From Myxococcota bacterium (lineage in GTDB: Bacteria > Myxococcota_A > UBA9042 > PHBI01 > JAWLBL01), in contig JAWLBL010000013.1 in assembly GCA_041687695.1 (NCBI GenBank), positions 146,874-210,873 of the forward strand: 64,000 bases of DNA. The letters run 5' to 3'. A program made the translations under genes and the position numbers. Within the stretch, counting starts at the first letter, position 1. Each line of letters opens with the position of its first letter. Shown piece by piece: positions 3,073-28,940 of the stretch. A model generated the notes under the pieces. It did not search any database. It saw only the letters and a list, made by a program, of their open reading frames with translations, and had not been told where the DNA came from.

Positions 3073-3091
3073 ATACACTTGTTCAGTGTAT
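3073..3091. promoter_or_regulatory. LexA-box-like palindrome overlapping the imuA start codon
   Basis: ATACAC-TTGTTCA-GTGTAT is a perfect 6-nt inverted repeat containing GTTCAG. It matches the delta-proteobacterial LexA consensus CTRHAMRYBYGTTCAGS at about 15 of 17 positions. The imuA ATG at 3090 lies inside the 3' arm. Confidence 0.45.
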
Positions 3092-4004
3092 GGCCCAGCG
3101 CGTGACCATCGACGAGCTCAAGGCTCGTCTCCATCAGGCCTTCCCCGAGGCGATCCCCGAGGCGGAGCTCCCGTCGCCCTCGGGGCGGGTCGCGACCGGG
3201 GTGCCGCGGCTCGATCGGCTGCTCGGCGGCGGGCTCGTCGCCGGGCAGGTGGCGGCCTGGCTGGCCGCGCCGGGGGCCGGCTCGGCTTCGCTGATGCGCG
3301 CGACGGCGCGCCGGGCGCTGGGCGACGGCCACCGCGTCGCGATCGTGGACGCGGGCGGGACGCTGGCCCCGGCGGACTGGGCGCCGATCGGCGCGCCCCC
3401 TCAGGAGCGGCTGTGGTTCGTGCGCCCACCGGTCGGCGGCGATCCCGAGGAGGCGGGCCGCCAGGGCCTGTGGGCGGCCGAGGTGCTGACCCGCTCGGGC
3501 GCCTTCGGCCTGGTGATGCTGGATCTGACCGGCCTCGACGTGCGCGGGGCCACCCGCTGGGCCGCGCCCCTGCGTCGGGCGGCGCGCGACGGCGCCGCGG
3601 CCCTGCTCCTGGTCGGCGAGGCCGCCACCCGCGCCGCGCCGACCCAGGTCGTCCGTCTCGAACCCCGGGCGCCCGCCCCCGCCGATCTCGAGGCCGGGCG
3701 CCGCGCGCTGGGGGTGTCGCTCGTGCGCGGCGGCCCCCCCGGCGCCGAGGAGCTCGTCATCGATGCTCGCCCCTGTCTCGTCCCGCGTCGCCTGCCTGCG
3801 CTCGCCGTGGTTCGCGATCGACGTCCTGGCGCGCGACGGCCTCGCCGCGAAGGGTTCGCCGATCGCGGTGATCCGGGGCGCCGGCACGCACGCGCGGGTC
3901 GCGCTGGCCAGCCCGGCGGCCAGGGCCGCTGGGGTGCGGGCCGGGCAGAGCCCGTCGGAGGCGCGGGCCCTGGCGCGCGATCTGGCGCTGACGACGTGGG
4001 ATGA
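3090..4004 (+). CDS. imuA: ImuA (SOS mutagenesis cassette protein, RecA/SulA-fold), C-terminus uncertain
   Basis: The first roughly 228 aa (to ...EELVIDARP) look like ImuA: GVPRLDRLLGGGL, and a RecA-like core AIVDAGGTL...GLVMLDL. After nt 3763 the frame overlaps imuB and reads Arg/Gly/Pro-rich sequence typical of wrong-frame translation. The true end is probably near 3770-3790. Confidence 0.65.
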   Translation: MAQRVTIDELKARLHQAFPEAIPEAELPSPSGRVATGVPRLDRLLGGGLVAGQVAAWLAAPGAGSASLMRATARRALGDGHRVAIVDAGGTLAPADWAPIGAPPQERLWFVRPPVGGDPEEAGRQGLWAAEVLTRSGAFGLVMLDLTGLDVRGATRWAAPLRRAARDGAAALLLVGEAATRAAPTQVVRLEPRAPAPADLEAGRRALGVSLVRGGPPGAEELVIDARPCLVPRRLPALAVVRDRRPGARRPRREGFADRGDPGRRHARAGRAGQPGGQGRWGAGRAEPVGGAGPGARSGADDVG

Positions 4005-5313
4005 GGCGCGGATCGCGGCGGCGATGGCGGCGCTGGGCGAGCGGCTCGAGGCGGTGACGCCGCGGCTGGCGCCCGCGGGGCCGGGGTGCTTCTGGCTCGA
4101 GCCGGTGGTCTCGCGGGGCGAGGACGAGCGGGCCTTCGCCGCGCGGCTGCTCGAGGCGGCGCGTGGCGAGCGGCTGACCGAGGCGCGCGTGGCCATCGCG
4201 GACGGGCCGGTCGCGGCCTCGGCGGCGGCGCGGACGGCGCGCGAGGCGGTGACCTGCCTGCCGCCGGGCGGGGACGCGGCCTTCCTGGCGGGGCTGCCCA
4301 TCGAGCTCCTGGGCGTCGGGCCGGCGATGCGCGAGCTGCTGGTGGCGCTGGGCGTGCGCACCGGGGCCGCGCTGCAGGCGATGGACCCGGGGCTGCTCGA
4401 GGCGCGCTTCGGGCCCGAGGGGCGCCGCCTGTGGCTGCGGGCGCGCGGGCAGACGCGGCGGCGGCCGCTGACGCCGCGCGGGCGGCCCGAGCACCGGGTC
4501 GAGGTGCCGCTGCTCGAGGCGACGGCGCACCTCGAGCCGGTCCTGTTCGTGCTGCGGGGCGCCATCGATCGGGTGGCGCGGGCCATGGCGGGGGCGGGGG
4601 CGGCCGTCGCGCGGCTGCGTGTCACCCTGGTGCGCGAGCGGGGCGAGGCGACGCGGCTCGAGCTGGCGCCGTCGCGGCCGAGCGCCGAGGGGCCGCTGCT
4701 CTTCGAGCTGGTCCGGGCGCGCCTGGCCGAGTCGCCCGACGGCGAGGAGGGGGCGCCGGACTGGACGGCCCACCCGGTGACCGACGTCGTCGTCGAGGTG
4801 GGCGAGGGCGCGCCGCTGAACCCGCTGCAGGGCGACCTGTTCGCCGCGCGCTGGCGCGACCCGGTGGCGCTCGAGGCGGCGCTGGCGCGGCTGACGGGCC
4901 GCTTCGGCGAGGGCGCGGTGGCCGTGCCGGTCGCGGTGGACACCTGGCGGCCCGAGCGGGCGGGGATCTGGCGGCCGGTGGCCGAGGCGGGGGCGGCCGC
5001 GGCGACCGGGGCGGCGCCGTCCGAGGCCCCCGCCGAGGCCGCGGACGGGGACGTCAGCGCCTGCGTGCGGCTGCTGCCCGAGCCGGCCCCGGTGCGGCTC
5101 GACGCCGAGCGGCGGCAGGTCTTCGGGGCGCGGGCGCGGGGGCCGGTCACGGTCACGGCCTGGCGCGGGCCCGAGCGGCTGTCGGGCGAGGCCTGGGGCG
5201 AGGACCCCTGGGACCGCGACTACTTCTGGCTGCTGACGGCCGAGGCCGGGGCGCTGTGGGTCTACCGGGATCGCCGCGCGGGGGGGTGGTTCCTGCACGG
5301 CTGGCTCGACTGA
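3763..5313 (+). CDS. imuB: ImuB (Y-family DNA-polymerase-like, catalytically degenerate)
   Basis: 516-aa protein. N-terminal RVACLRSPWFAIDVL...SPIAVIRGAG...RVALASPAARAAGVRAGQSPSEARAL matches the Y-family palm/finger start (IACVD...PVAV...V.AASYEAR..GV..GM). Sits immediately downstream of imuA, as in imuA-imuB(-dnaE2) cassettes. Confidence 0.8.
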   Translation: MLAPVSSRVACLRSPWFAIDVLARDGLAAKGSPIAVIRGAGTHARVALASPAARAAGVRAGQSPSEARALARDLALTTWDEARIAAAMAALGERLEAVTPRLAPAGPGCFWLEPVVSRGEDERAFAARLLEAARGERLTEARVAIADGPVAASAAARTAREAVTCLPPGGDAAFLAGLPIELLGVGPAMRELLVALGVRTGAALQAMDPGLLEARFGPEGRRLWLRARGQTRRRPLTPRGRPEHRVEVPLLEATAHLEPVLFVLRGAIDRVARAMAGAGAAVARLRVTLVRERGEATRLELAPSRPSAEGPLLFELVRARLAESPDGEEGAPDWTAHPVTDVVVEVGEGAPLNPLQGDLFAARWRDPVALEAALARLTGRFGEGAVAVPVAVDTWRPERAGIWRPVAEAGAAAATGAAPSEAPAEAADGDVSACVRLLPEPAPVRLDAERRQVFGARARGPVTVTAWRGPERLSGEAWGEDPWDRDYFWLLTAEAGALWVYRDRRAGGWFLHGWLD

Positions 5314-5424
5314 GGGCGCGCGGGTCGGGACGCGCCCCTAACCCTGGCTTGACGCTGGGAAAAGCCGGTGTCTATGATGCGCCGGCTCGACGGGACCGAG
5401 TGTCAGTCATCATCGAGGGTTAGC

Positions 5425-6768
5425 ATGGGCGAAGGCGCCGACAAGTCGAAGAAGGATGCTTCCACGGGCGAGCCCGAGGGGGGCCTCCCGGAGTTCATCG
5501 TGACCGAAGGCGCCGAAGACGCCGCGGACACCACCGCCGCGGCCGAGGAGACCCAGGCCGAGGCGTCGTCCGACGCGGGCGCCGAGCTGTCGGCCGAGGA
5601 GGCGCTCGCCATCGCCGAGGCCGAGGCCGCGGCGGCCGAGGCGGCGGCCAAGGCGGCGGCGGCGGCGGCAGCGGCGGCGGCGGCCAAGGCCAAGGCCGAG
5701 AAGGTCAAGGCGGCGACCAGCGACACCGTCGAGGCGTCGGCCGAGGGCAAGGGCAAGAAGGGCAAGGCCAAGGGCGGCGGCGACAAGGCCAAGGACGTGG
5801 CCAAGGCGGCGGCGACCAAGGCGCCCGAGCCCGAGCCCGAGCCGATCCTGGTCATCAAGCCCAGCGCCGAGGGCCTGTTCGAGGGCAAGGTCGACGAGAA
5901 GGCCGCCGAGTCGTTCATCCCCGACGAGCCCTTCCGCGGCGGGCGCAGCAAGGTCGCCATCGGCGCCTTCGCGGTCGTGCTGCTGGCCACGGTCGGCGGC
6001 GGGGCGGTCATCGCCTCGAACGAGCGGCTCAAGACCGACGTGCAGTGCTTCCTCGAGCAGCGCCTCGACGAGTGCAAGGGCGCCGAGAAGCGCGCGCTCG
6101 AGGCCCGGTGGAAGGACGAGGACCTCAAGGCGCGCAACCGCTACGGCGACGTGACGCTGGTCTACTTCCCGCCGGACGCCAAGGTGAAGGTGACCAAGAC
6201 CACCTACACCCAGGAGGGCCTGAGCGGCGCGCCCACCAAGTCGGGCGAGGAAGAGATCAAGAACGCCACGAGCGATCTGAAGCCGGGCCAGACCATCGAG
6301 CGCCTGCCGCTGCTCAACCTGCCGATCTTCGAGTCCGAGAAGAACGAGCAGGGCGACGTCACCACGGTCTTCACCTACGAGTACAAGCTCGAGTTCGAGC
6401 GCGAGGGCTACGAGCCGCGCACCTTCACCTACCGCATCGACGACTGGCAGCGCGTCGGCCCGGGCAACGAGATCATCGACTGGAAGGGGCTCGACCTCAT
6501 CCCGAAGCCCGAGACCCTGATGGCCAACTTCGCCAAGGCGATGGGGCAGCTGCACTGCGCGCTCAAGGACAACAAGAAGGCCAAGGGCCTCGACCCCGAG
6601 AGCCTCGGGCTGGTCGAGGAGTCCGCCTTCGAGATCATCCGCCTGCGCAACGGCTTCAAGACCAAGGACGACTTCAACACGGCCTACTCCATCCTGACCG
6701 GCGGCCAGCACGCCGAGTGGTGGGCGAAGACCGCCGAGGAGATCGCCAAGAACAAGTGCGACGAGTGA
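5425..6768 (+). CDS. hypothetical single-pass membrane protein with Ala/Lys/Glu-rich low-complexity N-terminus
   Basis: ATG at 5425 preceded by a GAGGGT RBS. Disordered acidic/poly-Ala N-terminus, one TM helix (VAIGAFAVVLLATVGGGAVIA), and a roughly 250-aa C-terminal domain with good coding statistics. No recognisable family. Confidence 0.6.
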   Translation: MGEGADKSKKDASTGEPEGGLPEFIVTEGAEDAADTTAAAEETQAEASSDAGAELSAEEALAIAEAEAAAAEAAAKAAAAAAAAAAAKAKAEKVKAATSDTVEASAEGKGKKGKAKGGGDKAKDVAKAAATKAPEPEPEPILVIKPSAEGLFEGKVDEKAAESFIPDEPFRGGRSKVAIGAFAVVLLATVGGGAVIASNERLKTDVQCFLEQRLDECKGAEKRALEARWKDEDLKARNRYGDVTLVYFPPDAKVKVTKTTYTQEGLSGAPTKSGEEEIKNATSDLKPGQTIERLPLLNLPIFESEKNEQGDVTTVFTYEYKLEFEREGYEPRTFTYRIDDWQRVGPGNEIIDWKGLDLIPKPETLMANFAKAMGQLHCALKDNKKAKGLDPESLGLVEESAFEIIRLRNGFKTKDDFNTAYSILTGGQHAEWWAKTAEEIAKNKCDE

Positions 6769-6839
6769 CGGCTCAGACGTGAGCTGAAGGCTCCTGGCAC
6801 GAGCTGAAGGCTCCGGCCTGAGTCGGCGCCACGACGCGG

Positions 6840-6876
6840 AGGCGGCCCCCACCCGGAGGCCGCCTTCGTCCTTTCG
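6840..6876. terminator. bidirectional terminator between convergent genes
   Basis: AGGCGGCC/GGCCGCCT stem with a 10-nt loop followed by TCGTCCTTTCG. Lies between the + hypothetical gene (ends 6768) and the - mepA-like gene (ends 6902). Confidence 0.4.
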
Positions 6877-6901
6877 AAGGCCCGCTCGGCCAGGCGCGCG
6901 G

Positions 6902-8212
6902 TCAGTCTCCGACGTCCTCGCCGGTCAGGTGGGCCCATGCGGGCGGCGTGCGCTCGCCCCGCAGGAAGGCGACGGCGTCGGCGGCCAGGGCGCGGATCTC
7001 GGGGTCGGCGTGGGCCGTCAGCGGCTCGAGGTGGGGCGTGGCCTGCGAGGCCTTGAGGCGCACGAGGCGGGTGATGGCGTAGCGCAGCTCGTCGGGGCCG
7101 CCGGCGCGGAGCAGCGGCACCACCTCGGCCACGCGCTCGGCGAGCGCCGCCTCCCACGTGTCCACCCACGGCCGCGTCGGGCCCTGGTCGACGCAGCCCT
7201 CGACCCGCTCCTCGAGCGCGCAGTACAGGCGCACGTGGAAGTGCTCCTCGTGGCGCGACGAGTCGCGCGGCTCGCGCAGGACGGCCTCGGCGCGCTCGAC
7301 GAGCAGCGGGTCGGCCCCCGCGCTGCGGGCCCAGGCGATGAGGCGCGCCTTCAGCGGGTTCGAGACGAAGATCCACTGGATCTGCACGCGCGGGTCGCGC
7401 AAGAGCCCCTCGACCAGCGCCCAGTTGCGCGCGTCGTCGAACCACAGATCGCCGCCCCAGCGCGCGCGCCCGTCCGCGCCGAACGGGACCAGCTCCGGCT
7501 GATCGGCGATGCGCCAGGCGCCGTCGCGCACGTAGAAGGCCAGATCGACGTCGCGCCCGCTGTTGTGGCTGGCGTGGCCGTGCAGGTCGCCGCCGTCGCG
7601 CGCGCTGAGATCGCCCGCCCACAGGACGCTGCCCGGCCACTGGTCCGCGACCCGCCGCGCCGCGCGCTCGAGGGCGCCGACCAGCTCGTCGGTGCCCCAG
7701 ACGGCGCCGCGCCGGACCGAGATCGGGCGCGCCCGCAGCGGGCCCGTGTCGGTGAGGCGGCGCGCCCCGACCAGGTAGCCGCGCGACGCGGTGCCGATGG
7801 AGTAGCTGCGCTGGGCGCTGAGCCCGACGAGGTGCGCCCGGTCGAAGGCCGGGATGGAGGCCTGGTGCGACGGCGCCGGCGGGGGCGGGGCCGACAGGCT
7901 GGCGGCCGGCAGGAGCTGCACGGCGCCGAGGTCGAGCCGGGCCAGCGCGCGGCCCTCGGCGGGGCCCGCGACGGGCGATGGGGGCGCGCACGACAGGCAG
8001 GCGGCCGCGCCGATCCCGGCGAGCCAATCGCGGGGGCCCAGATGGGCGCGACCGCCCCGGCGCCCGCGGGGAGGCCGGGGCGGGTGCCGCGACGCGTCGG
8101 GCGACGGCCGATCTCGTAACGAGCGCTTCACCGCCGCGCACCGTACCGCAGCCTGGGCGCAGGCGCACCAAACGCGCGGCCGCGATCGCGGGTGAATTCT
8201 GGCTGAATACAC
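6902..8212 (-). CDS. mepA: penicillin-insensitive murein endopeptidase MepA-like (peptidase M74), start uncertain
   Basis: Contains the MepA-type metal-site motifs HGHASHNSGRDVDLAFY and EEHFHVRL. A signal/lipobox-like stretch WLAGIGAAACLSCAPP precedes the domain. The first ATG of the ORF (8212) may be upstream of the true start. Confidence 0.65.
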   Translation of the reverse strand: MYSARIHPRSRPRVWCACAQAAVRCAAVKRSLRDRPSPDASRHPPRPPRGRRGGRAHLGPRDWLAGIGAAACLSCAPPSPVAGPAEGRALARLDLGAVQLLPAASLSAPPPPAPSHQASIPAFDRAHLVGLSAQRSYSIGTASRGYLVGARRLTDTGPLRARPISVRRGAVWGTDELVGALERAARRVADQWPGSVLWAGDLSARDGGDLHGHASHNSGRDVDLAFYVRDGAWRIADQPELVPFGADGRARWGGDLWFDDARNWALVEGLLRDPRVQIQWIFVSNPLKARLIAWARSAGADPLLVERAEAVLREPRDSSRHEEHFHVRLYCALEERVEGCVDQGPTRPWVDTWEAALAERVAEVVPLLRAGGPDELRYAITRLVRLKASQATPHLEPLTAHADPEIRALAADAVAFLRGERTPPAWAHLTGEDVGD

Positions 8213-8229
8213 CGCCGGGCGGCCCCTTT

Positions 8230-8259
8230 TTGACCGGGTCGGAGCCGGCCCGGTAAGCT
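8230..8259 (+). promoter_or_regulatory. sigma70-like promoter of Cys-rich lipoprotein gene 1
   Basis: TTGACC - 18 nt - TAAGCT, then CTCCGCAC. It sits about 45 nt upstream of the ATG at 8305. The gene-2 promoter-like element has almost the same layout. Confidence 0.35.
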
Positions 8260-8304
8260 CCGCACGCGCGGGCCCGTCCAGGGCTCCAGGGGGACGAAGC
8301 GGTC

Positions 8305-11300
8305 ATGCGGAAGATCGGTGCGACAGGCTTGGGGCTGGTGGTGGCGCTCGCGTTGGTGGCTTGCGGCGACGAGGTGACGCAGACGCCGCTGCCCGGCAAG
8401 ACCTGCACGGTCCCGGCCGACTGCGAGGCGACGCTGGCGACGCGCGGCTACGCGGCCGAGTGCACGACCGTGACCTGCGACGCCAGCCGCTGCGTCTTCA
8501 CGGCCGTGAACGAGGGCGGCAGCTGCGGCGAGGGCGACGCGTGCGTCACGGGCGGCGTGTGCGCCAACCGTCTCTGCGTCGGTGAAGCGGTCGTGTGCGA
8601 CGACGGCGACCCCTGCACGACCGACGCCTGCGATCCGGCGACCGGCGGCTGCACGACCACGCCGGCGCCCGGCGAGCCCTGCGACGACGGGGTGGCCTGC
8701 ACCGAAAAGGACGTGTGCCAGCTGGACGGCCAGTGCCTCGGGCAGCCGTCCGCGACCTGCCAGTGCGCCGAGGACGCCGACTGCGCGGCGCTGGCCGAGA
8801 CCGACAAGTGCGCCGGCACCTTCGTGTGCGGCGACGACTTCGCCTGCCACGCCGACCCGGCGACGGTCATCCAGTGCGACACCAGCGGCGACACCGAGTG
8901 CGCCGGGGCGGTCTGCGACCCGGCGACCGGCGGGTGCGTGCTGACCGCCACGAACGAGGGGCAGCCCTGCGGCGAGGCCGCGGACGACTGCACCGGGCAG
9001 GCGGTGTGCACGAACGGGGCCTGCGCGGGCGAGGCGGTCGCCTGCGACGACGGCGACCCGTGCACGACCGACGAGTGCGTGCCGGGACAGGGCTGCGTGT
9101 ACGAGCCGGCGACCGGGCTGCCCTGCGACGACGGCGACCCGTGCACCAGCCCCGACGTCTGCCAGGCCGGGCAGTGCCAGGGCGCGGCGGCCAGCTGCGA
9201 CGACGGCAACCCATGCACGGTCGACGCGTGCGACCCCGTCACCGGGCAGTGCAGCCACACCGCGTCGGACGAGCCCTGCGACGACGGCAACCCGTGCACC
9301 ACGGGCGACAGCTGCTCGACCGGCGTGTGCAAGGGCGCGGGCGTGGCCTGTGACGACGGCAACCCGTGCACGGCCGACGTCTGCCAGGTGGGCGACGACG
9401 GCGAGGTCACCTGCGCGCACCAGAACGTGTTCGGCGTCTGCGACGACGGCGACCCGTGCACCGGCGGCGACGCGTGCCTGGGCGGGCAGTGCGTCGGGAC
9501 CGAGAAGCTGTGCGGGTGCTCGAGCGACCAGGAGTGCCAGGACAAGGCGCCGGACGACCTGTGCGTGGGCGCGTGGCTGTGCGACACCAGCGTGACCGGC
9601 GGCAAGTGCGTGCCCGACCCGGCGACGGTCGTGACGTGCCAGGCCAACGAGACGATGTGCACCATCGACCAGTGCGACCCGGCGACCGGGACGTGCAAGT
9701 CGCAGCCCAAGCCGGACGCGACCCCGTGCGACGACGGCAACGCCTGCTCGACCGGCGACATCTGCTCGTCGGGCGTGTGCGTCGGCAACGCGATGGACTG
9801 CAGCGACGGCAACCCCTGCACGGGCGACCTGTGCAGCGGCGGCGTGTGCAGCAACCAGCCGCTGGGCGGCAGCATGACCTTCCTGGACGTCGGCTTCGAC
9901 GCGGGCCTGCCGGACGGCTGGACCGCCGAGACGACCACGGAGGGCGTGGGCTGGAAGGTCTCGGCCGAGTACGCCGCCGAGGGTGACTTCGGCCTGGTGG
10001 CGACCGGTCCGAGCGGCGTGTACGACCACGGGGCGGTCACGGCGACGCTGCGCTCGCCCAAGTTCTGGGTCTACGGCGAGACGGTGCAGCTGCGCCTGAA
10101 GATGAAGACCGGCTTCGCGTCGCCGACCGTGGGCGCGGACAAGTGCTTCGCCTCCAACGACTACCTGTCGGTGGGCGTCGACAACTACGGGCTGCTCGAG
10201 CAGGTCGAGTGCGTCTCGGGCGACGCCCCGGACTGGGTGCAGCTGCAGGTGGACCTGTCGTTCTTCAAGAACCGCGAGATCGGCCTGGTCTTCGTCTTCC
10301 ACGCCGACGCCGAGGACAACGGCGGCTTCGGCGCCGCCATCGACGAGGTCGAGGTCTCGGCCCTGTTCACCTGCACCGACGGGCCGTGCACCATCGGGTC
10401 GTGCACGGCGGGGGCCTGCAACGCGGGGCCGCTGGTCTGCGACGACGGCGACCCGTGCACCCTGGACACCTGCAGCGCGACCACCGGCAAGTGCCAGTAC
10501 AAGCTGCAGGTCAACTGCGGCTGCGAGAGCGACTTCGACTGCCTGACCTTCAGCCCCTGCCTGCAGGGCACCTGCGGCCCGGACGGCTTCTGCGAGGAGA
10601 CGGTCATCACGGGGGCCTGCGACGACCAGGACGCCTGCACGGTGAACGACGTGTGCAACGAGGAGGGCGAGTGCCTCGGCGACGACATCGTCTGCGACGA
10701 CGGCGTGCCCTGCACCGACGACTGGTGCGACTACTCGGGCGAGTGCGTCTTCCAGTTCAAGCCGCTCGCCTGCGACGACGGCGACGCGTGCACGACCAAC
10801 GACACCTGCACGAGCGCCTCGACCTGCGCGGGCTCGCCCGTCGTGTGCGCCAGCGGCTCGTGCGCCTCGGGCTACTGCTCGGACGGCAGCTGCAAGTTCT
10901 CGATCAACCACGACGGGAGCTTCGAACTCGAGGAGGGCTTCGACTCGCTCGCCCCCAACCAGCTGCCGGCCGAGTGGACCGACAACGCCGAGAGCCCCGG
11001 GTGGAGCTGGAAGTCGACGACCACGGCCAGCCACTCGGCCCCGACCGCGCTGGGGCTGATGGGCCCGGCCAGCGCCTACGCGGCCGCCACGGTCAGCGTC
11101 ACGGCGCCGGCGGTGTCGCTGCCGCCCGACGGCGGGACGCTGCGTTATTGGGTCCGCGGCACCTGGGGCGACCAGGGCTGCACGACGGACGTGCTGCGCG
11201 TGAAGGTCAACGGCACGGTCGTCGACACCGTCTGCGCGAACGTGCCGGCCTTCGCCGAGCGCACCGTGGATCTGGCCGCCTTCGCCACCCAGCTGGCGAC

Positions 11301-11469
11301 CGTGAGCTTCGAGTTCTCGGCCAAGGCGGCCGACGCAGGCGCCGTGAGCCTGCTGCTCGACGACGTGGCGGTCACGGCGAAGTACCTGTGCGACGACGGC
11401 GACGCGTGCACCACGAACGACGCGTGCGTGCTGGGCTTCTGTCAGGGACAGGACGGCCTGTGCCCCTGA
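8305..11469 (+). CDS. giant secreted lipoprotein with Myxococcus-type cysteine-rich repeats (C-x-D-G-[DN]-P-C-T-x-D-x-C)
   Basis: 1054 aa. Lipoprotein signal MRKIGATGLGLVVALALVACGDE. At least 18 copies of a roughly 40-aa repeat (CDDGDPCTTDACDPATGGC...), interrupted by two non-Cys domains of about 170 aa each. RBS AGGGGGA. Confidence 0.85.
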   Translation: MRKIGATGLGLVVALALVACGDEVTQTPLPGKTCTVPADCEATLATRGYAAECTTVTCDASRCVFTAVNEGGSCGEGDACVTGGVCANRLCVGEAVVCDDGDPCTTDACDPATGGCTTTPAPGEPCDDGVACTEKDVCQLDGQCLGQPSATCQCAEDADCAALAETDKCAGTFVCGDDFACHADPATVIQCDTSGDTECAGAVCDPATGGCVLTATNEGQPCGEAADDCTGQAVCTNGACAGEAVACDDGDPCTTDECVPGQGCVYEPATGLPCDDGDPCTSPDVCQAGQCQGAAASCDDGNPCTVDACDPVTGQCSHTASDEPCDDGNPCTTGDSCSTGVCKGAGVACDDGNPCTADVCQVGDDGEVTCAHQNVFGVCDDGDPCTGGDACLGGQCVGTEKLCGCSSDQECQDKAPDDLCVGAWLCDTSVTGGKCVPDPATVVTCQANETMCTIDQCDPATGTCKSQPKPDATPCDDGNACSTGDICSSGVCVGNAMDCSDGNPCTGDLCSGGVCSNQPLGGSMTFLDVGFDAGLPDGWTAETTTEGVGWKVSAEYAAEGDFGLVATGPSGVYDHGAVTATLRSPKFWVYGETVQLRLKMKTGFASPTVGADKCFASNDYLSVGVDNYGLLEQVECVSGDAPDWVQLQVDLSFFKNREIGLVFVFHADAEDNGGFGAAIDEVEVSALFTCTDGPCTIGSCTAGACNAGPLVCDDGDPCTLDTCSATTGKCQYKLQVNCGCESDFDCLTFSPCLQGTCGPDGFCEETVITGACDDQDACTVNDVCNEEGECLGDDIVCDDGVPCTDDWCDYSGECVFQFKPLACDDGDACTTNDTCTSASTCAGSPVVCASGSCASGYCSDGSCKFSINHDGSFELEEGFDSLAPNQLPAEWTDNAESPGWSWKSTTTASHSAPTALGLMGPASAYAAATVSVTAPAVSLPPDGGTLRYWVRGTWGDQGCTTDVLRVKVNGTVVDTVCANVPAFAERTVDLAAFATQLATVSFEFSAKAADAGAVSLLLDDVAVTAKYLCDDGDACTTNDACVLGFCQGQDGLCP

Positions 11470-11536
11470 CCGGGCCCGGGCGGCGGGGAGCGTCCGCGTC
11501 GACGCCCCCCATCGGACGGCTTCGGACCGGGAACCG

Positions 11537-11566
11537 TTGAGCGCAGCGGGGTCGCCCGCCTATACT
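11537..11566 (+). promoter_or_regulatory. sigma70-like promoter of Cys-rich lipoprotein gene 2
   Basis: TTGAGC - 18 nt - TATACT, followed by CCGCAC. Same spacing and downstream motif as the element upstream of gene 1. Confidence 0.35.
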
Positions 11567-11613
11567 CCGCACCTCTTCGACGCCGGGGTTCGGAGATGGG
11601 GGGAAGTCCGATC

Positions 11614-14600
11614 ATGCGCAAGCTCTTTGGTGGGGTGCTGCCCGCGGTGGCGGCCCTGACGCTGCTGGCGGCGGGGTGCACCGAGGTGACCCTGGTCCCC
11701 GGGCTCGAAGGCGAGACCTGCAAGCGCCCCAGCGAGTGCGCCGAGGGCCTGACGTGCGTCCAGGGACGCTGCGCCGTCGACACCGAGCTGCCCTTCACCG
11801 ACGTCTCGGGTGACGAGGGCGGCAAGGGTGACGTGCCCCCGCCCGAGGACGTCCCCGACGTCTCGAACGACACCACCGTCGACGCCGAGGACGTGCTCGA
11901 GGTGACGGACCCCGGGACCCCCGAGGTCATCGTCACGCCGGACGTGCCCACGGACACGCCCGACGACCCCGATGTCGACCCGATCTGGGACGTCGCCGAC
12001 GCCGACGCGGGCGAGGAGACCGCCCAGACGCCCGACGCGACCGAGGACGTCGAGATCGATGTGCCGCCGGGGCCACCCGGGCCCGACGAGCCGTGCGAGG
12101 GCGACTGCCCGACCGGCTACCTGTGCCTGCCGCAGGTCGACGGCGTCGCCCGCTGCAAGCCCTTCCCCAAGGGCGTGTGCCTGCCCTGCGCGTCGGCGGC
12201 CGACTGCCCGACGCCGGGCGCCCAGTGCCTCAGCTTCCCGGACGGACAGAGCTTCTGCGGCGCGGTCTGCGGCACCCCGGCCGACTGCCCTTCGGGCTTC
12301 TCGTGCACCGACGGCCAGTGCCGCCCGCAGACGACCTCGTGCGAGTGCACGCCCGACCTGTTCGGCTGGAGCCTGCCCTGCGACAACGCCGGCGCGGGCG
12401 GCGTGTGCAAGGGCCAGACGACCTGCCTCCAGAAGGGGTGGTCGACCTGCTCGGCGGCGGCGCCCTCGGTCGAGCTGTGCAACGGCAAGGACGACGACTG
12501 CGACGGCATCACCGACGAGGAGCCCAAGTACTTCGAGAAGGGCAAGAGCCTGCCCTTCGGCGCGCCCTGCGGCCTGGGCGTGTGCGCGGGCGGCGAGGTG
12601 GTCTGCACGCCCGACGGCGGGGTGACCTGCTCGGGCAACGCGCTGGCCGGGCCCGAGGTGTGCGCCGACCAGCTCGACAACGACTGCGACGGGCAGGTCA
12701 ACGAGGGCTGCGAGTCCGACGACTGGGACGGCGACGGGGTGCCCAACGACAAGGACTGCGCGCCGATGGACGCCAGCACCTACCCGGGCGCGACCGAGAA
12801 GTGCTGCAACCCCGCCCTGGGCTACAACAAGGCCTGCGACACCAACTGCGACGGCAAGGTCACGCCCTGCGCGAGCTGCGACAAGGACCTCGACGGCTTC
12901 TGCCCGCCCGAGGACTGCAACGACAACGATCCGAAGATCCACCCGGGCGCGGCCGAGAAGTGCAACGACGGCATCGACCAGGACTGCCAGGGCGGCGATC
13001 TGCTGTGCTCGGCCGCCCAGGACAAGGACGGCGACGGCTTCATCCCGCCGGCCGACTGCAACGAGGGCAACCCGTCGGTCTACCCCTACGCCGAGGAGCT
13101 CTGCGACAACCTGGACAACGACTGCGACGGCCTCATCGACGAGGGCAACCCGCAGGGCGGGCAGAACTGCGGGACGACCGCCGAGTACTGCCAGTCGGGC
13201 AAGATGGTCTGCACCCACTACGGGTACGGCGCGGTGCTGCAGTGCCAGGGCGCCATCAAGTACGGCCCCGAGACCTGCGACGGCGTCGACAACGACTGCG
13301 ACGGGCAGACCGACGAGACGTTCACCCAGCTGGGCCAGCCCTGCGACGGGCCCGACAGCGACTTCTGCGCCAACGGCGTGCTCGTGTGCTCGGGCGACGG
13401 GCAGGGCGTCGAGTGCTCGGACGAGGCCGTGTCCAACCTGGTCGAGGAGTGCAACGGCCTCGACGACGACTGCGACGGGGCGACCGACGAGTTCGTCTGC
13501 AACCTGAAGGACCTCGACGGCGACGGCTACACCGCGGCCCAGGGCGACTGCGACGACTGGCGGCCCGAGGTGTACCCCGGCGCCGCGGAGCCGTGCTGCG
13601 ACCCCAAGCTGGGGCCGGCCGCCTACGAGATCTGCGACCTGAACTGCGACGGGATCATCGTCCCGTGTGGCTTCAACGACGCCGACGCGGACGGCTACCC
13701 GGCGGGCGTCGACTGCGACGACAACGACCCGCGGACCTACCCGGGCGCCCCCGAGAAGTGCGGCGACGGCAAGGACCAGGACTGCGACGGCGTCGACACC
13801 AACTGCGCGCTCGTCCAGGACAAGGACAAGGACGGCTTCCACTCGGGCATCGACTGCAACGACAACGACAACAAGGTCCACCCGTGGGCGACCGAGGTCT
13901 GCAACTACATCGACGACGACTGTGACGGCGTCATCGACAACGGCAACCCGTCGACCCTCAGCGGCCCCTGCGGGCCCGGCACGCCCGGCTGCGACCCGGG
14001 TGCGTGGGTGTGCGTGCACGACGCGCAGACCTACTCGGTCAAGGAGCTGTGCATCAACGACAAGTTCCAGGCGACCGAGCTGTGCAACGGCCTCGACGAC
14101 GACTGCGACGGCGAGATCGACGAGACGTTCTACGACCTCGGCCAGCCCTGCGACGGGCCGGACGCGGACGGCTGCGCCAACGGCGTGTTCCAGTGCTCCG
14201 AGGACGGGCTGGGCGTGACCTGCGGCGACGAGGTGGTGGTCGACATCCTCGAGGTGTGCGACGGCGTGGACAACGACTGCAACGGCCAGACCGACGACGG
14301 GATCTCCTGGGAGGGCGTCGCCCTCGGGCAGATCTGCGACGGCACGGGCGTGTGCGGCAAGGGCGTCGTGGTGTGCACGGCGGGCTTCACGGTGACGTGC
14401 TCGACCAACCCGGACGGGCCCTTCCCGCAGAGCAAGGCCGAGACCTGCAACGGCCTGGACGACGACTGCGACGGTGAGATCGACGAGGACTTCCTGTTCG
14501 ACGGCGTGCCGGTGGGCGGCGCCTGCGACGGCTGGGGCGAGTGCGGCGTCGGCGTGGTCGAGTGCAACGGCGCGGGCGGGGCGACCTGCTCGACGCAGCC

Positions 14601-16617
14601 CGACGGGTCGGCGCCGCAGGGCTCGGTCGAGGTGTGCAACGGGCTCGACGACGACTGCGACGGGCTGACCGACGAGGAGCTGACGTTGGCGGACAGCCCG
14701 TGCAAGGCCGTGGGGCAGTGCGCGGCCGGCGGGGTCGGGGCGATGTGCGCCGACGGCGAGTGGGTGTGCGACTACACGGGCGTCGCCGGCTACGAGGAGG
14801 ACGAGACCCTCTGCGACGGGCTGGACAACGACTGCGACGGGCTGACCGACGAGGGCTGGGACGTGGGCCTGGCGTGCGACGGCGACGACACGGACCTGTG
14901 CCAGAACGGGACCTGGACGTGCACGCCGGACGGGATGGGCCTCGAGTGCCTGAACGAGACCGAGGTCGACATCGAGGAGGTCTGCAACAACTACGACGAC
15001 GACTGCGACGGCGACGTGGACGAGGTCGAGGTCTCGCCCGCCGAGGCCGGGTGCGCCAGCAAGGGCGTGTGCGCGTCGGGCGAGGGCGTCGTCGTCACCT
15101 GCGCCGAGGTCGGCTACGCGTGCGACTACTCCGGCGTTCAGGGCTGGGAGGCCGACGAGACCCTGTGCGACGGGCTCGACAACGACTGCGACGGCAAGAC
15201 CGACGAGGAGCTGCTCTTCGAGGGGGCGGCGCTCGGCGAGGACTGCGACGGCTGGGGCGAGTGCGGCATCGGCAAGGTGCAGTGCGGGCCGGGGGGCAGC
15301 ATCATCTGCTCGACGATGCCCGGGGGCGCGACCCCGCAGGACAAGCCCGAGGTGTGCAACGGCCTCGACGAGGACTGCGACGGGGTCGCCGACGACGACT
15401 TCCTGTGGAACGACCTGCCGGTCGGCGCGGCCTGCGACCCGTCGGGGCCGTGCGGCGAGGGCGTGGTCGAGTGCGCGCCGTCGGGGATGGCGGCGCTGTG
15501 CAGCACGGGCGCGGGCGGGTCGGCCGACCAGGGCCAGCCCGAGACCTGCAACGCCGTCGACGACGACTGCGACGGCCAGACCGACGAGACGGCGGACCTC
15601 GACCTGACCGTCTCGGGGTGCCCGGCCTTCGGCGTGTGCGCCGCGCTCGACCAGTTCGTGTCCTGCACCGACGGCGTGTGGATGTGCCACATGGAGTTGC
15701 TGCCGGACTACGAGCCCGACGAGCAGACCTGCGACGACCAGGACAACGACTGCGACGGCCTGGTCGACGAGAGCTTCCCCGACAAGGGGCAGCTGTGCGA
15801 CGGCCCGGACCCCGACCAGTGTCCGACGGGCAAGCTCGAGTGCAACGCCACGGGAGACGGGTTGGTGTGCGGCGCCGAGACGGGCAAGGGCAGCCCCGAG
15901 ACCTGCGACGGCATCGACAACGACTGCGATGGCCTCATCGACGAAGGCTTCACCTACAAGGGCCTGCCGATGGGCGCGTACTGCGACGGCGTGGGCGCTT
16001 GCGGGCTGGGGCGCGTGGAGTGCAACGGGCAGGGGGCGGCGACGTGCTCGACCAACCCCGACGGCAGCAAGAGCCAGGTGACGGCCGAGGTGTGCAACGG
16101 CAAGGACGACGACTGCGACGGGCTGACCGACGAGGGGCTGACCTGGAACGACATCCCGGTGGGGCAGCCGTGCGACGGCGTGGGCGCCTGCGGGATGGGC
16201 GTCGTGGTGTGCCACGTGAGCAGCGGCCAGGCGACGTGCTCGACCAACCCGAACGGGACGACGCCGCAGAGCACGACCGAGCTGTGCAACGGCCTGGACG
16301 ACGACTGCGACGGGCAGACCGACGAGAGCTTCCCCGAGGCGGGGCAGCCGTGCGACTCGGCGGCCGACGCGGACAGCTGCAAGACGGGCGAGTGGACGTG
16401 CCAGGGCGGGCAGATGAGCTGCCAGGGCGATTACGGCTGCGTGCCGGACAGCGAGTGCTACGACCCGGGGGCGCCGGCCAAGCAGCGATGCCTGTGCGTC
16501 GGGATGCAGTGCACCAAGGCCCACGGCGACTCTTGCGACGCCTTCGGGTGCCACTGCAACGGCGGGCTGCCGTGCGTCGCGCCGAAGGTGTGCGTGCCGA
16601 ACGTGGGGTGTCAGTGA
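11614..16617 (+). CDS. giant secreted lipoprotein with MopE-like putative metal-binding repeats (C-N-G-x-D-D-D-C-D-G-x-x-D-E)
   Basis: About 1667 aa. Lipoprotein signal MRKLFGGVLPAVAALTLLAAGC. The ATG at 11614 has a better RBS than the ORF-track start at 11596. Acidic Pro/Asp/Thr linker, then at least 20 CNGLDDDCDGxTDE repeats plus DCNDNDPxxxPGAxExC variants. Confidence 0.85.
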   Translation: MRKLFGGVLPAVAALTLLAAGCTEVTLVPGLEGETCKRPSECAEGLTCVQGRCAVDTELPFTDVSGDEGGKGDVPPPEDVPDVSNDTTVDAEDVLEVTDPGTPEVIVTPDVPTDTPDDPDVDPIWDVADADAGEETAQTPDATEDVEIDVPPGPPGPDEPCEGDCPTGYLCLPQVDGVARCKPFPKGVCLPCASAADCPTPGAQCLSFPDGQSFCGAVCGTPADCPSGFSCTDGQCRPQTTSCECTPDLFGWSLPCDNAGAGGVCKGQTTCLQKGWSTCSAAAPSVELCNGKDDDCDGITDEEPKYFEKGKSLPFGAPCGLGVCAGGEVVCTPDGGVTCSGNALAGPEVCADQLDNDCDGQVNEGCESDDWDGDGVPNDKDCAPMDASTYPGATEKCCNPALGYNKACDTNCDGKVTPCASCDKDLDGFCPPEDCNDNDPKIHPGAAEKCNDGIDQDCQGGDLLCSAAQDKDGDGFIPPADCNEGNPSVYPYAEELCDNLDNDCDGLIDEGNPQGGQNCGTTAEYCQSGKMVCTHYGYGAVLQCQGAIKYGPETCDGVDNDCDGQTDETFTQLGQPCDGPDSDFCANGVLVCSGDGQGVECSDEAVSNLVEECNGLDDDCDGATDEFVCNLKDLDGDGYTAAQGDCDDWRPEVYPGAAEPCCDPKLGPAAYEICDLNCDGIIVPCGFNDADADGYPAGVDCDDNDPRTYPGAPEKCGDGKDQDCDGVDTNCALVQDKDKDGFHSGIDCNDNDNKVHPWATEVCNYIDDDCDGVIDNGNPSTLSGPCGPGTPGCDPGAWVCVHDAQTYSVKELCINDKFQATELCNGLDDDCDGEIDETFYDLGQPCDGPDADGCANGVFQCSEDGLGVTCGDEVVVDILEVCDGVDNDCNGQTDDGISWEGVALGQICDGTGVCGKGVVVCTAGFTVTCSTNPDGPFPQSKAETCNGLDDDCDGEIDEDFLFDGVPVGGACDGWGECGVGVVECNGAGGATCSTQPDGSAPQGSVEVCNGLDDDCDGLTDEELTLADSPCKAVGQCAAGGVGAMCADGEWVCDYTGVAGYEEDETLCDGLDNDCDGLTDEGWDVGLACDGDDTDLCQNGTWTCTPDGMGLECLNETEVDIEEVCNNYDDDCDGDVDEVEVSPAEAGCASKGVCASGEGVVVTCAEVGYACDYSGVQGWEADETLCDGLDNDCDGKTDEELLFEGAALGEDCDGWGECGIGKVQCGPGGSIICSTMPGGATPQDKPEVCNGLDEDCDGVADDDFLWNDLPVGAACDPSGPCGEGVVECAPSGMAALCSTGAGGSADQGQPETCNAVDDDCDGQTDETADLDLTVSGCPAFGVCAALDQFVSCTDGVWMCHMELLPDYEPDEQTCDDQDNDCDGLVDESFPDKGQLCDGPDPDQCPTGKLECNATGDGLVCGAETGKGSPETCDGIDNDCDGLIDEGFTYKGLPMGAYCDGVGACGLGRVECNGQGAATCSTNPDGSKSQVTAEVCNGKDDDCDGLTDEGLTWNDIPVGQPCDGVGACGMGVVVCHVSSGQATCSTNPNGTTPQSTTELCNGLDDDCDGQTDESFPEAGQPCDSAADADSCKTGEWTCQGGQMSCQGDYGCVPDSECYDPGAPAKQRCLCVGMQCTKAHGDSCDAFGCHCNGGLPCVAPKVCVPNVGCQ

Positions 16618-16654
16618 CCGGCGCCGCCGGCGTGGAACGACGAGGGAGCGCGAG

Positions 16655-18538
16655 ATGAGCTGGAGGACGGCGAGCGGGTGGGTCGCGGCGATGTGGGCGG
16701 CCTGCGCCGTCGGCCTGGGGGCCGCGGGGTGCGGAGACGACGAGCCGGGCGGCGCCGCGGACGCGGATGTCGTGGCGCCGAAGGCCGACGCCGCCGACGA
16801 CGTGGGTGGCGAGGCCGACGCGGCGGACGAGGTGGCCGAGGACGCGGTCGAGCCCGACGCCGAGCCCGCGTGCGCCGAGGGGACGCCCTGCGACGACGGC
16901 GACCCGTGCACGACCGACGACGCGTGCGACGCGGCCGGGCAGTGCGTCGGCGGCGGCGCGACGTGCGACGACGGCCTGGCGTGTACGGCGGACACGTGCG
17001 ACCAGGGCGCGTGCGAGCACACGCTGGTCGCCGGCTTCTGCCTGACCGAGGGCGAGGCGCCCAGCTGCGTGGCCCACAACGGCAAGGACACGGCCGGGTG
17101 CCGGCTGTGCGACGCCGAGGCGCAGGGCGGGCCCAAGTGGAAGAACGCGGCCATTGGCGCCCTGTGCGACGACGGCGACGCCTGCACGGCCGACGACCGC
17201 TGCGAGATCGGGGTGTGCGTCGGCAAGACGGCGGTGACGTGCGCCCCCAGCACCGCGTGTATGCAGGTGGCGTGCGAGCCGGCGGTGGGCTGCGTCGAGA
17301 CGCCCATCGTCGCGGCCTGCGACGACCTGGACGCGTGCACGGCGGACGACGAGTGCAAGGACGGCGTGTGCGTGGGCAAGCCCATCACGTGCGACGACGC
17401 CAACCCGTGCACGGTCGACAGCTGCGACGTGTTCGAGGGCTGCGTCTACGACCCGAGCAGCCAGTGCGACGACGGCGACCCGTGCACCGAGGACGCGTGC
17501 CTGGTGGACGGCAGCTGCGTGAACACGCCGTTCGACGGGCCGTGCGAGGACGGCGACCTGTGCACGACCGGCGAGCAGTGCGCCGAGGGGACGTGCGCCG
17601 GCGGCGAGCCCGTCGTCTGTGACGACGACAACGCCTGCACGGTCGACTCGTGCGACCCGGCCAAGGGGTGCCTGCACCTGTTCGACGACGGCGGCTGCGA
17701 CGACGGGCTCGAGTGCACGACGAGCGACTTCTGCGCCTCGGGCGTGTGCCTGGGCAGCAAGACCGAGACGTGCCCCCTGTGCGCGACCCCGTCGTCGTCG
17801 ATGGCCGTCCGGGTCGCGAGCCTGCAGATCGGGGACGCCGGGCAGCCGGGCGACGGGCTGGACGTCGACGGCAAGCTCTCGACCTGCTCGCCGGCGGGCG
17901 ACTGCAGCGAGGGCATCGACAACAACCTGGGCCTGCTCGCGCCCATCGTGAACCCGTCGATGAACCAGAGCATCGCCGAGGGCGGCCTGCACTTCGTCAT
18001 CGACCTCTCCCAGGCGACCTTCGACGGCCAGCCGTTCCCCCTCGTGGTCTACGACGCCGATCTGATGCAGCCCTGGTGCGACTTCACCGCGGCGACGTGC
18101 AACTACCGCGCGCGCCAGGTCAGCTTCGACGGCGACTGCACGCCCTACTTCGCCATGGACAACGCCGTCATCGAGGCCGGGCGCCTGCGGGGCGGCGGCA
18201 AGGGGTCGGTCATCACCATGGTCATCCCGCTCAGCGGGTCCAGCTCGCTGCCGCTGACCCTGGCCGACGCGGTCATCGAGGGGGACGTCTCGACGACCCC
18301 CGACGGCACCAAGATCATCGGCCTCAACGGCGTCATCGCGGGCGCGCTGCCCAAGACGCAGCTCATCGCGGCCATCGAGGCCTTCGACGAGGATCTCCTG
18401 CCGCTCGACAAGGAGGTCGTCGTCGACCTGCTCGAGAGCATCATCGAGCCGGACATCGACGTGGACGGCGACGGTGTCTTCGAGTCGGCGAGCCTCGGCA
18501 TGTCCGTCAACACGGTGCCGGCCAACCTGGTCCCGTGA
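16655..18538 (+). CDS. secreted Cys-rich repeat lipoprotein (Myxococcus-type repeats) with unique C-terminal domain
   Basis: 627 aa. Signal AAMWAACAVGLGAAGCGDDE, acidic linker, about 10 CDDGDPCT/CDDxNACTVDSC repeats, then a roughly 250-aa non-repeat domain. Starts 38 nt after gene 2 and is probably co-transcribed. Confidence 0.8.
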   Translation: MSWRTASGWVAAMWAACAVGLGAAGCGDDEPGGAADADVVAPKADAADDVGGEADAADEVAEDAVEPDAEPACAEGTPCDDGDPCTTDDACDAAGQCVGGGATCDDGLACTADTCDQGACEHTLVAGFCLTEGEAPSCVAHNGKDTAGCRLCDAEAQGGPKWKNAAIGALCDDGDACTADDRCEIGVCVGKTAVTCAPSTACMQVACEPAVGCVETPIVAACDDLDACTADDECKDGVCVGKPITCDDANPCTVDSCDVFEGCVYDPSSQCDDGDPCTEDACLVDGSCVNTPFDGPCEDGDLCTTGEQCAEGTCAGGEPVVCDDDNACTVDSCDPAKGCLHLFDDGGCDDGLECTTSDFCASGVCLGSKTETCPLCATPSSSMAVRVASLQIGDAGQPGDGLDVDGKLSTCSPAGDCSEGIDNNLGLLAPIVNPSMNQSIAEGGLHFVIDLSQATFDGQPFPLVVYDADLMQPWCDFTAATCNYRARQVSFDGDCTPYFAMDNAVIEAGRLRGGGKGSVITMVIPLSGSSSLPLTLADAVIEGDVSTTPDGTKIIGLNGVIAGALPKTQLIAAIEAFDEDLLPLDKEVVVDLLESIIEPDIDVDGDGVFESASLGMSVNTVPANLVP

Positions 18539-28868: not shown

Positions 28869-28940
28869 TGGGGCGTCGTCAAGTGGCAAGACACGGGTTT
28901 TTGGTACCCGCATTCGTAGGTTCGAATCCTACCGCCCCAA
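28869..28940 (+). tRNA. tRNA-Gln (anticodon UUG)
   Basis: Hand-folded cloverleaf. Acceptor UGGGGCG/CGCCCCA with the U1:A72 pair characteristic of bacterial tRNA-Gln. D-arm GUC...GAC with a GG loop. Anticodon arm CGGGU-UUUUGGU-ACCCG (anticodon UUG). T-arm GUAGG-UUCGAAU-CCUAC. Discriminator A. Near-identical to E. coli tRNA-Gln. Confidence 0.85.

Follow-up and report, generated by a model that had tools for sequence, protein, structure and literature searches.

What could three adjacent genes for very large, cysteine-rich lipoproteins do for a bacterium of the Myxococcota? The question is raised by a 64-kb stretch of contig JAWLBL010000013.1 (assembly GCA_041687695.1), referred to below as the window, in which three neighbouring open reading frames (ORFs), termed genes 1, 2 and 3, occupy positions 8305–18538 of the plus strand. 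Our preferred answer, to which we assign a probability of about 0.55, is that the three products would be membrane-anchored rods, stiffened by disulfide bonds and probably by calcium, which display binding domains. In window positions, the three genes are:

8305–11469, plus strand: gene 1, 1054 amino acids (aa), predicted lipoprotein with lipobox LVAC (Cys20); a stalk of Dicty_CTDC repeats, broken by two jelly-roll-type domains
11596–16617, plus strand: gene 2, an ORF of 1673 aa, for which NCBI takes the ATG at 11614 as the start, giving 1667 aa; predicted lipoprotein with lipobox AAGC
16655–18538, plus strand: gene 3, 627 aa, predicted lipoprotein with lipobox AAGC (Cys26); starts 37 nt after gene 2; a conserved syntenic gene

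In the proposed mechanism, the proteins would be exported and held by an N-terminal lipid anchor in the envelope or on the cell surface. The bulk of each protein would form a rod of small, fully disulfide-bonded modules, which belong to the Dicty_CTDC family in genes 1 and 3 and to family PF11617 in gene 2; in the latter, calcium bound at Asp-rich loops would stiffen a rod of about 20 units. The rods would act as spacers holding globular binding modules off the membrane, namely two jelly rolls of the MAM/choice-of-anchor-J type in gene 1 and a 255-aa domain with calcium motifs at the tip of gene 3. Genes 1 and 2 would have been added upstream of gene 3, which neighbours a gene for a peptidoglycan endopeptidase.

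A sceptical reader might take the genes for spurious long ORFs, which high-GC DNA yields in large numbers on both strands (the DNA of the window has 72–75% GC), or for collapsed repeats, mis-assembled in what is a metagenome-assembled genome (MAG). We consider such an artefact extremely improbable and largely refuted. A GC content at third codon positions of 0.95–0.98, combined with a low GC content at second positions, occurs only in the frames of genes 1, 2 and 3 and not in the competing ORFs; the translations give strong Pfam matches, and orthologues are found in independent metagenomes. The block is present in a 99-kb contig of GCA_041690335.1 and in a second, 226-kb MAG contig at NCBI. 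Aligned with each other, these assemblies remain colinear for 21,884 bp, differing by 24 mismatches (99.89% identity) and by no gap; gene 2 is 1667 aa long in both, with two substitutions. The best DNA tandem repeat in the block has a period of 192 nt and extends over 1.8 copies of 82% identity, i.e., the repeats have diverged. Because the two assemblies agree without gaps and the DNA repeats are diverged, repeat collapse, which a preliminary description of this DNA had named as a possible weakness, is unlikely even without long reads. Genes 1–3 are real genes.

Cysteine accounts for about 8.5–10.7% of the residues encoded by genes 1–3, and since every other ORF of the window contains ≤3.7%, they are its only Cys-rich ORFs. 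Lipoprotein signals were assessed by three features: a positively charged n-region, an h-region that is hydrophobic, and a lipobox whose final Cys falls among the first ~35 residues. The N-termini MRK...LALVAC (gene 1), MRK...LLAAGC (gene 2) and M..R...GLGAAGC (gene 3), with lipobox cysteines at positions 20, 22 and 26, fit the pattern of signal peptidase II substrates, and the three proteins are predicted bacterial lipoproteins. The numbers of cysteines following the lipidated one, 112, 166 and 52 in genes 1, 2 and 3, respectively, are even in all three proteins. All three are very acidic, with net charges of roughly –131, –294 and –94, and histidine is scarce, with seven, nine and four residues in the same order. 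The preliminary description of three tandem secreted Cys-rich repeat lipoproteins, using two repeat families, thus agrees with the ORFs, the lipoboxes and the Pfam matches to PF00526 and PF11617; a scan with repeat models, which it had suggested as a check, returned scores well above the Pfam cut-offs for both families.

The largest of the three arrays is that of gene 2, which comprises two main segments:

11779–12093, plus strand: acidic linker of gene 2, rich in Asp, Pro, Val, Thr and Glu (aa 62–166)
12478–16422, plus strand: PF11617 array of gene 2, about 20 units (aa 295–1609)

Pfam family PF11617, named 'Cu-binding_MopE', matches gene 2 in 18 stretches with a total of 320.4 bits (E 1e-97; gathering cut-off 27 bits), and CNGxDDDCDG motifs number 18 when counted strictly and 20–21 when counted leniently, as the preliminary description had anticipated. 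The acidic linker it had noted is likewise present; a stretch of 110 residues spanning it contains 24 Asp, 19 Pro, 14 Val, 12 Thr and 12 Glu. The units of the array are 57–64 aa long, contain six Cys each and fall into three subtypes. Longer units occur in two clusters (around aa 375–500 and 640–770), where an extra half with the pattern DxDGDG...DCxDxxPxxxPGAxE is present, as in the N-terminus of MopE. Each unit carries an Asp-rich loop of the form (N/D)G(L)D(D/N)DCDGxxD(E). An AlphaFold model of two units (predicted local distance difference test, pLDDT, 81) consists of beads, each formed by a loop and a small beta-hairpin.

We next consider which metal, if any, these loops might hold. The family name, and the names of homologues at NCBI, which are annotated mostly from MAGs of the Myxococcota type and include 'putative metal-binding motif-containing protein' and 'MopE-related protein', suggest that PF11617 repeats might bind copper in the manner of MopE, and that gene 2 might encode a surface sponge for copper or another transition metal, or a metal-acquisition protein. 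The names of these homologues also make a myxobacterial origin of the block plausible. In addition, weaker Cu(II) sites of MopE* are unmapped and have been discussed as lying near its N-terminus (PMC3423442). The only solved protein with sequence similarity to gene 2 is indeed MopE* from Methylococcus (2VOV), but the alignment pairs its residues 5–46 with residues 428–469 of gene 2. The Cu(I) site of MopE* lies in the beta-sheet body and consists of Kyn130 (Trp130 converted to kynurenine), His132 and His203; in the crystal structure, Gly47 is the first residue modelled (PMC3423442). Because the matched residues precede Gly47 and do not include Kyn130, His132 or His203, the PF11617 motif is neither the copper site nor a part of MopE* that has been seen structurally. 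A Cu(I) site of the MopE/CorA type (two His and kynurenine) was not found in gene 2, with the alignment confined to MopE* residues 5–46. Thus, although gene 2 and the 'MopE-related' proteins share a motif family with the N-terminus of MopE*, gene 2 lacks the beta-sheet body and the Kyn/His/His site, and carries instead a 20-unit array on a lipid anchor.

The composition of the array also speaks against copper. The mature protein of 1646 residues contains only nine His and 12 Met, its even number of cysteines suggests that all are paired, and the conserved ligands are carboxylates, which would suit Ca2+. Moreover, the motif can be aligned with a proven calcium site. Tucker et al. 2012 (PMC3278476) aligned PF11617 with the Cys-rich core of teneurins, and this core was found to bind three Ca2+ through Asp and Asn side chains, in a geometry that resembles thrombospondin type-3 repeats and LDL-A modules (Meijer et al. 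2022, PMC9058538). When a profile of 18 gene 2 motifs was compared with five teneurin/gametolysin cores by hhalign, a probability of 94.3% and an E-value of 9.6e-8 over 14 columns were obtained, with Asp invariant or nearly so in gene 2 at the columns of teneurin-4 D843, D845, D847 and D851. Teneurin C-rich, thrombospondin type-3 and LDL-A modules share with gene 2 a disulfide-flanked, Asp-rich DxDxDGxxD core, and the best homologue of a gene 2 unit bears a precomputed Dockerin_1 (calcium loop) label. Structural Ca2+ is favoured over copper because of the carboxylate ligands, the near absence of His and Met, and the even cysteine count; most likely, the Asp-rich loop of gene 2 would bind calcium, as thrombospondin type-3 repeats and the teneurin C-rich domain do. 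Copper or other transition-metal sequestration, and with it the MopE-like metal binding put forward in the preliminary description, appears improbable, and the name 'copper-binding MopE' probably misleads when applied to PF11617.

Gene 1 is built on the second repeat family, and its array is interrupted twice:

8404–9864, plus strand: first Cys-rich block of gene 1 (aa 34–520), in which Dicty_CTDC units of ~25 aa alternate with CxC...DC modules
9865–10371, plus strand: non-Cys domain 1 of gene 1 (aa 521–689), weak InhA-like MAM match, paralogue of domain 2
10912–11388, plus strand: non-Cys domain 2 of gene 1 (aa 870–1028), choice-of-anchor J (NF038128)

Family PF00526 (Dicty_CTDC) matches gene 1 in six stretches with 101.2 bits and gene 3 in three stretches with 66.9 bits (gathering cut-off 27 bits), and its motif CxDxxxCTxDxC, part of a four-Cys repeat some 24 residues long, was found by pattern search 15 times in gene 1 and eight times in gene 3. 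The preliminary description had assigned these repeats to TIGR02232, but a search of genes 1 and 3 with NCBIfam gave no match to that model, whether the limit was E ≤0.01 or E ≤10, a result to be read with the reservations that inclusion of the model in the library is unconfirmed and that the HMMER filters drop weak matches; in view of the Pfam scores, Dicty_CTDC is the family that describes them. The two inserts of gene 1 had correctly been recognized as paralogous (28% identity, E 2e-12). NCBIfam model NF038128 covers aa 875–1023 over its full length with 35.4 bits (cut-off 30); in domain 1 it yields only a second, weaker stretch below threshold, and Pfam gives a weak InhA-like MAM match to aa 634–685. 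The inserts are predicted to be paralogous domains of the choice-of-anchor-J/MAM-like type. Compared with the choice-of-anchor-J and InhA-like MAM proteins, the copies of gene 1 differ in that they sit inside a Cys-rich repeat array, in a protein devoid of a C-terminal sorting tag.

Matrix proteins of Dictyostelium, among them EcmA and EcmB, are characterized by the Dicty_CTDC repeat (PMC4931340); no structure of the repeat has been solved (PMC8078820). EcmA, EcmB, PsiA and PsiF belong to the same family of 24-residue, 4-Cys repeats (PF00526) as genes 1 and 3, are secreted or extracellular and, like these, combine repeats with a globular domain. Unlike them, genes 1 and 3 are bacterial, their products are predicted to carry an N-terminal lipid anchor, and the partners of the repeats are MAM/choice-of-anchor-J domains and a new 255-aa domain rather than PA14.

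In its design, the nearest characterized analogue would be TraA of Myxococcus xanthus, whose Cys-rich repeats have been proposed to form a rigid stalk for a lectin-like PA14 head (PMC3325183). A proposed stalk of Cys-rich tandem repeats bearing a lectin-like domain, in a lipid-anchored surface protein, is what the two would have in common, and genes 1–3 might accordingly be read as receptors of the TraA type for kin recognition or outer-membrane exchange. This is very unlikely, however: Pfam and NCBIfam searches found none of the PA14, TIGR04201 and MYXO-CTERM signatures in genes 1–3 (TIGR04201, the repeat of TraA itself, not even at E ≤10), the C-termini carry no transmembrane tag corresponding to the C-terminal MYXO-CTERM anchor of TraA, and no traB-like gene for an OmpA-type partner lies nearby. 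Polymorphism cannot be judged from the two available genomes, which at 99.89% identity are too alike. A toxin reading of genes 1–3 was set aside as well, the defining domains being absent. Cys-rich repeats have also been treated in connection with horizontal transfer in a 2026 preprint, where the repeat is a different one.

Gene 3 resembles gene 1 in its stalk, and it ends in a domain without counterpart in genes 1 and 2:

16871–17770, plus strand: Dicty_CTDC stalk of gene 3 (aa 73–372)
17771–18535, plus strand: C-terminal domain of gene 3 (aa 373–627, 255 aa), an unnamed family with three conserved Cys pairs

The preliminary description had noticed an end domain of roughly 250 aa and called it unique; a distinct C-terminal domain is indeed present, but it is far from unique. 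An exhaustive HMMER search of 1.84 billion representatives recovered 429 homologous clusters (defined at 50% identity) with a limit of E ≤1e-3, of which 108 reached E ≤1e-30; a protein search limited by its word index returned a single match with the end domain alone and five with profile A1. The domain has no Pfam match at E ≤10 and no NCBIfam match, and sequence and profile searches of the PDB gave nothing significant. In most homologues it lies 0–4 residues from the C-terminus. Of the 150 best homologues, 65 have it behind arrays with Dicty_CTDC-type motifs and four behind arrays with PF11617-type motifs, and 73 of the 120 homologues that begin with Met have a lipobox-like N-terminus. Conserved are the motifs LDVDGDPxTCxP...C..G.DN and DIDxDGDG..D.AS (the cores of which read LDVDGDPxTC...GIDN and DIDxDGDGxxDxAS) as well as C103, C110 and C123. 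Only Asp, Asn, Ser, Gly, Pro and Cys are found among the invariant positions, without a set of the catalytic type, and the pattern would fit calcium sites and disulfides rather than an active site.

AlphaFold, supplied with an alignment of 37 sequences, models the end domain with high confidence (pLDDT 94.4, predicted template modelling score 0.89) as a mostly beta fold with long strands and three helices. Foldseek searches of this model against PDB and BFVD gave nothing significant (best PDB E 0.16, template modelling (TM) score ≤0.22). Among the Foldseek results for the models of the end domain and the gene 2 units, matches to PsbO, avidin and fibronectin type I were dismissed as noise (TM score ≤0.25). 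Tentatively, we suggest that the end domain founds an undescribed, widespread extracellular family, in which it would serve as an interchangeable conserved head on stalks of either Dicty_CTDC or PF11617 repeats, and that it may be a new calcium-dependent binding module directed at the envelope or cell wall. The domain is also found in other architectures: one homologue of 4804 aa (P0002) contains 12 tandem copies and, according to Pfam, two others of 2062 and 1193 aa (P0024 and P0039) carry it behind PF11617 arrays of 20 and 12 stretches, respectively, and a protein of 2207 aa (P0045) combines it with Ig-like Big_7 and Big_13 and with FG-GAP domains.

Several points weigh against the picture of lipid-anchored, calcium-stiffened rods that display binding domains. 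Location in the outer membrane or on the surface cannot be read from sequence, the stalk and display functions are predictions, and a ligand-binding role of the heads, like any function in adhesion or recognition, is that of a candidate only. The calcium argument stands on a motif alignment of Asp-rich sequence only 14 columns long. Neither teneurin nor thrombospondin turned up when PDB sequences were searched with profiles of a gene 2 unit or of its motif, and unlike teneurin, gene 2 lacks the third calcium site and the 6-Cys pattern (CxDPDCC; 1-3, 2-5, 4-6). Nor did the two-unit model of gene 2 produce a significant Foldseek match (best E 1.7), and gene 2 has no obvious globular head.

The missing head of gene 2 would be easier to understand if the proteins were bulk material, i.e., a structural scaffold of the extracellular matrix or envelope, or high-capacity buffers or nucleators of calcium that interact with mineral and have no specific ligand-binding heads. 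The use of the Dictyostelium matrix repeat, the extremely negative net charges, the ~20 putative calcium loops of gene 2 and the position of gene 3 family genes beside peptidoglycan enzymes in two lineages all point in this direction. On the other hand, an N-terminal lipid anchor speaks for tethered rather than shed proteins, and the globular domains of genes 1 and 3 belong to families or architectures of the adhesin type. We therefore regard a purely structural role as possible but doubtful, and retain anchored rods with displayed binding domains as the preferred reading.

How the block came together is suggested by its surroundings. Its flanks are housekeeping genes: upstream lie genes for an M20 peptidase, Dtd, an ImuA/ImuB-like pair, an Ala/Lys-rich membrane protein and an M74 (MepA-like) endopeptidase, and downstream those for SppA, a radical SAM enzyme, CysS, Def and Fmt. 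The gene closest to the block on the upstream side is

6902–8212, minus strand: M74 (MepA-like) murein endopeptidase gene, which related contigs also have, as a conserved neighbour, beside their gene 3 orthologues

A scan of metagenomes with the end domain (alignment A3) yielded 16 loci. Three of them (L038, L039 and L041) carry M20, Dtd, the Ala/Lys-rich protein (not in every case) and M74 in that order, with M74 followed directly by an orthologue of gene 3, which aligns over its full length with 40–51% identity; all three lack genes 1 and 2, and L041 has SppA and the radical SAM gene farther along. The orthologues retain the layout of gene 3, with a lipobox, an acidic linker, a CTDC array and the end domain. 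Since these three contigs have M74 and gene 3 without genes 1 and 2, gene 3 is an old conserved gene and genes 1 and 2 are a lineage-specific insertion, placed between M74 and the ancestral gene 3 in the lineage of the window. The paralogous expansion envisaged in the preliminary description therefore holds only in part: genes 1 and 3 do share their repeats, with 33–38% identity across the CTDC region, a value that would fit gene 1 either as a duplicate of gene 3 or as a gene of other descent, but the block as a whole is better described as an old gene 3 with an insertion. A scan of genome contigs with the neighbouring SppA retrieved only matches of 33–38% identity from unrelated phyla, without synteny.

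In another contig (L040), a divergently oriented, Cys-rich ORF (12% Cys) with PF11617-type motifs, at positions 4860–9449 of the minus strand, lies directly upstream of a gene 3 orthologue. In this third related contig, a gene 3 orthologue is thus again paired with a PF11617 protein, though the two are arranged differently. The gene 3 family adjoins peptidoglycan enzymes in two separate lineages. One is that of the window, with its M74 MepA-like endopeptidase. In the other, a lineage of 60% GC represented by loci L045–L048, a RelA/SpoT gene lies upstream of the gene 3 relative, and genes for a protein of 219 aa, an S66 LD-carboxypeptidase and a beta-lactamase-family protein follow downstream on the same strand.

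Within the block, genes 1 and 2 are separated by 126 nt and genes 2 and 3 by 37 nt, and the longer spacer contains

11537–11566, plus strand: sigma-70-like site TTGAGC-18-TATACT, by consensus match only

This is the only such consensus match between positions 8000 and 19000, where ~0.1 would be expected by chance, and a separate promoter for genes 2 and 3 is possible. Three further features of the window may be recorded:

3090–5313, plus strand: ImuA/ImuB-like (mutasome) gene pair between Dtd and the Ala/Lys-rich gene, labelled solely by inspecting the translations; missing at the corresponding position in L038 and L041
5368–6768, plus strand: gene for a protein of 466 aa with an Ala/Lys/Glu-rich low-complexity N-terminal half, one predicted membrane segment and a conserved C-terminal half; no Pfam match; L038 and L041 have a counterpart of ~32% identity in this position
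28869–28940, plus strand: one tRNA gene, the sole Rfam match in the window; no rRNA was found

The block is composed of known but uncharacterized repeat families around one unnamed, well-modelled head domain; as the preliminary description had remarked, the function of such arrays is essentially uncharacterized. Genes 1–3 do not constitute a new biological system, and statements on their function remain predictions. The parts most worth attention are the end domain of gene 3 and the reinterpretation of PF11617 as a motif for calcium. The former is compact, confidently modelled and without a solved relative, and could become a new Pfam family; its occurrence on both repeat types suggests that the repeats are generic stalks, which would make the head domains the target for experiments. 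With calcium as the better hypothesis for PF11617, hundreds of 'putative metal-binding' annotations should be reread. In Myxococcota-like bacteria, few unannotated surface proteins are as abundant as lipoproteins with Cys-rich repeats, and this locus offers three handles on them.

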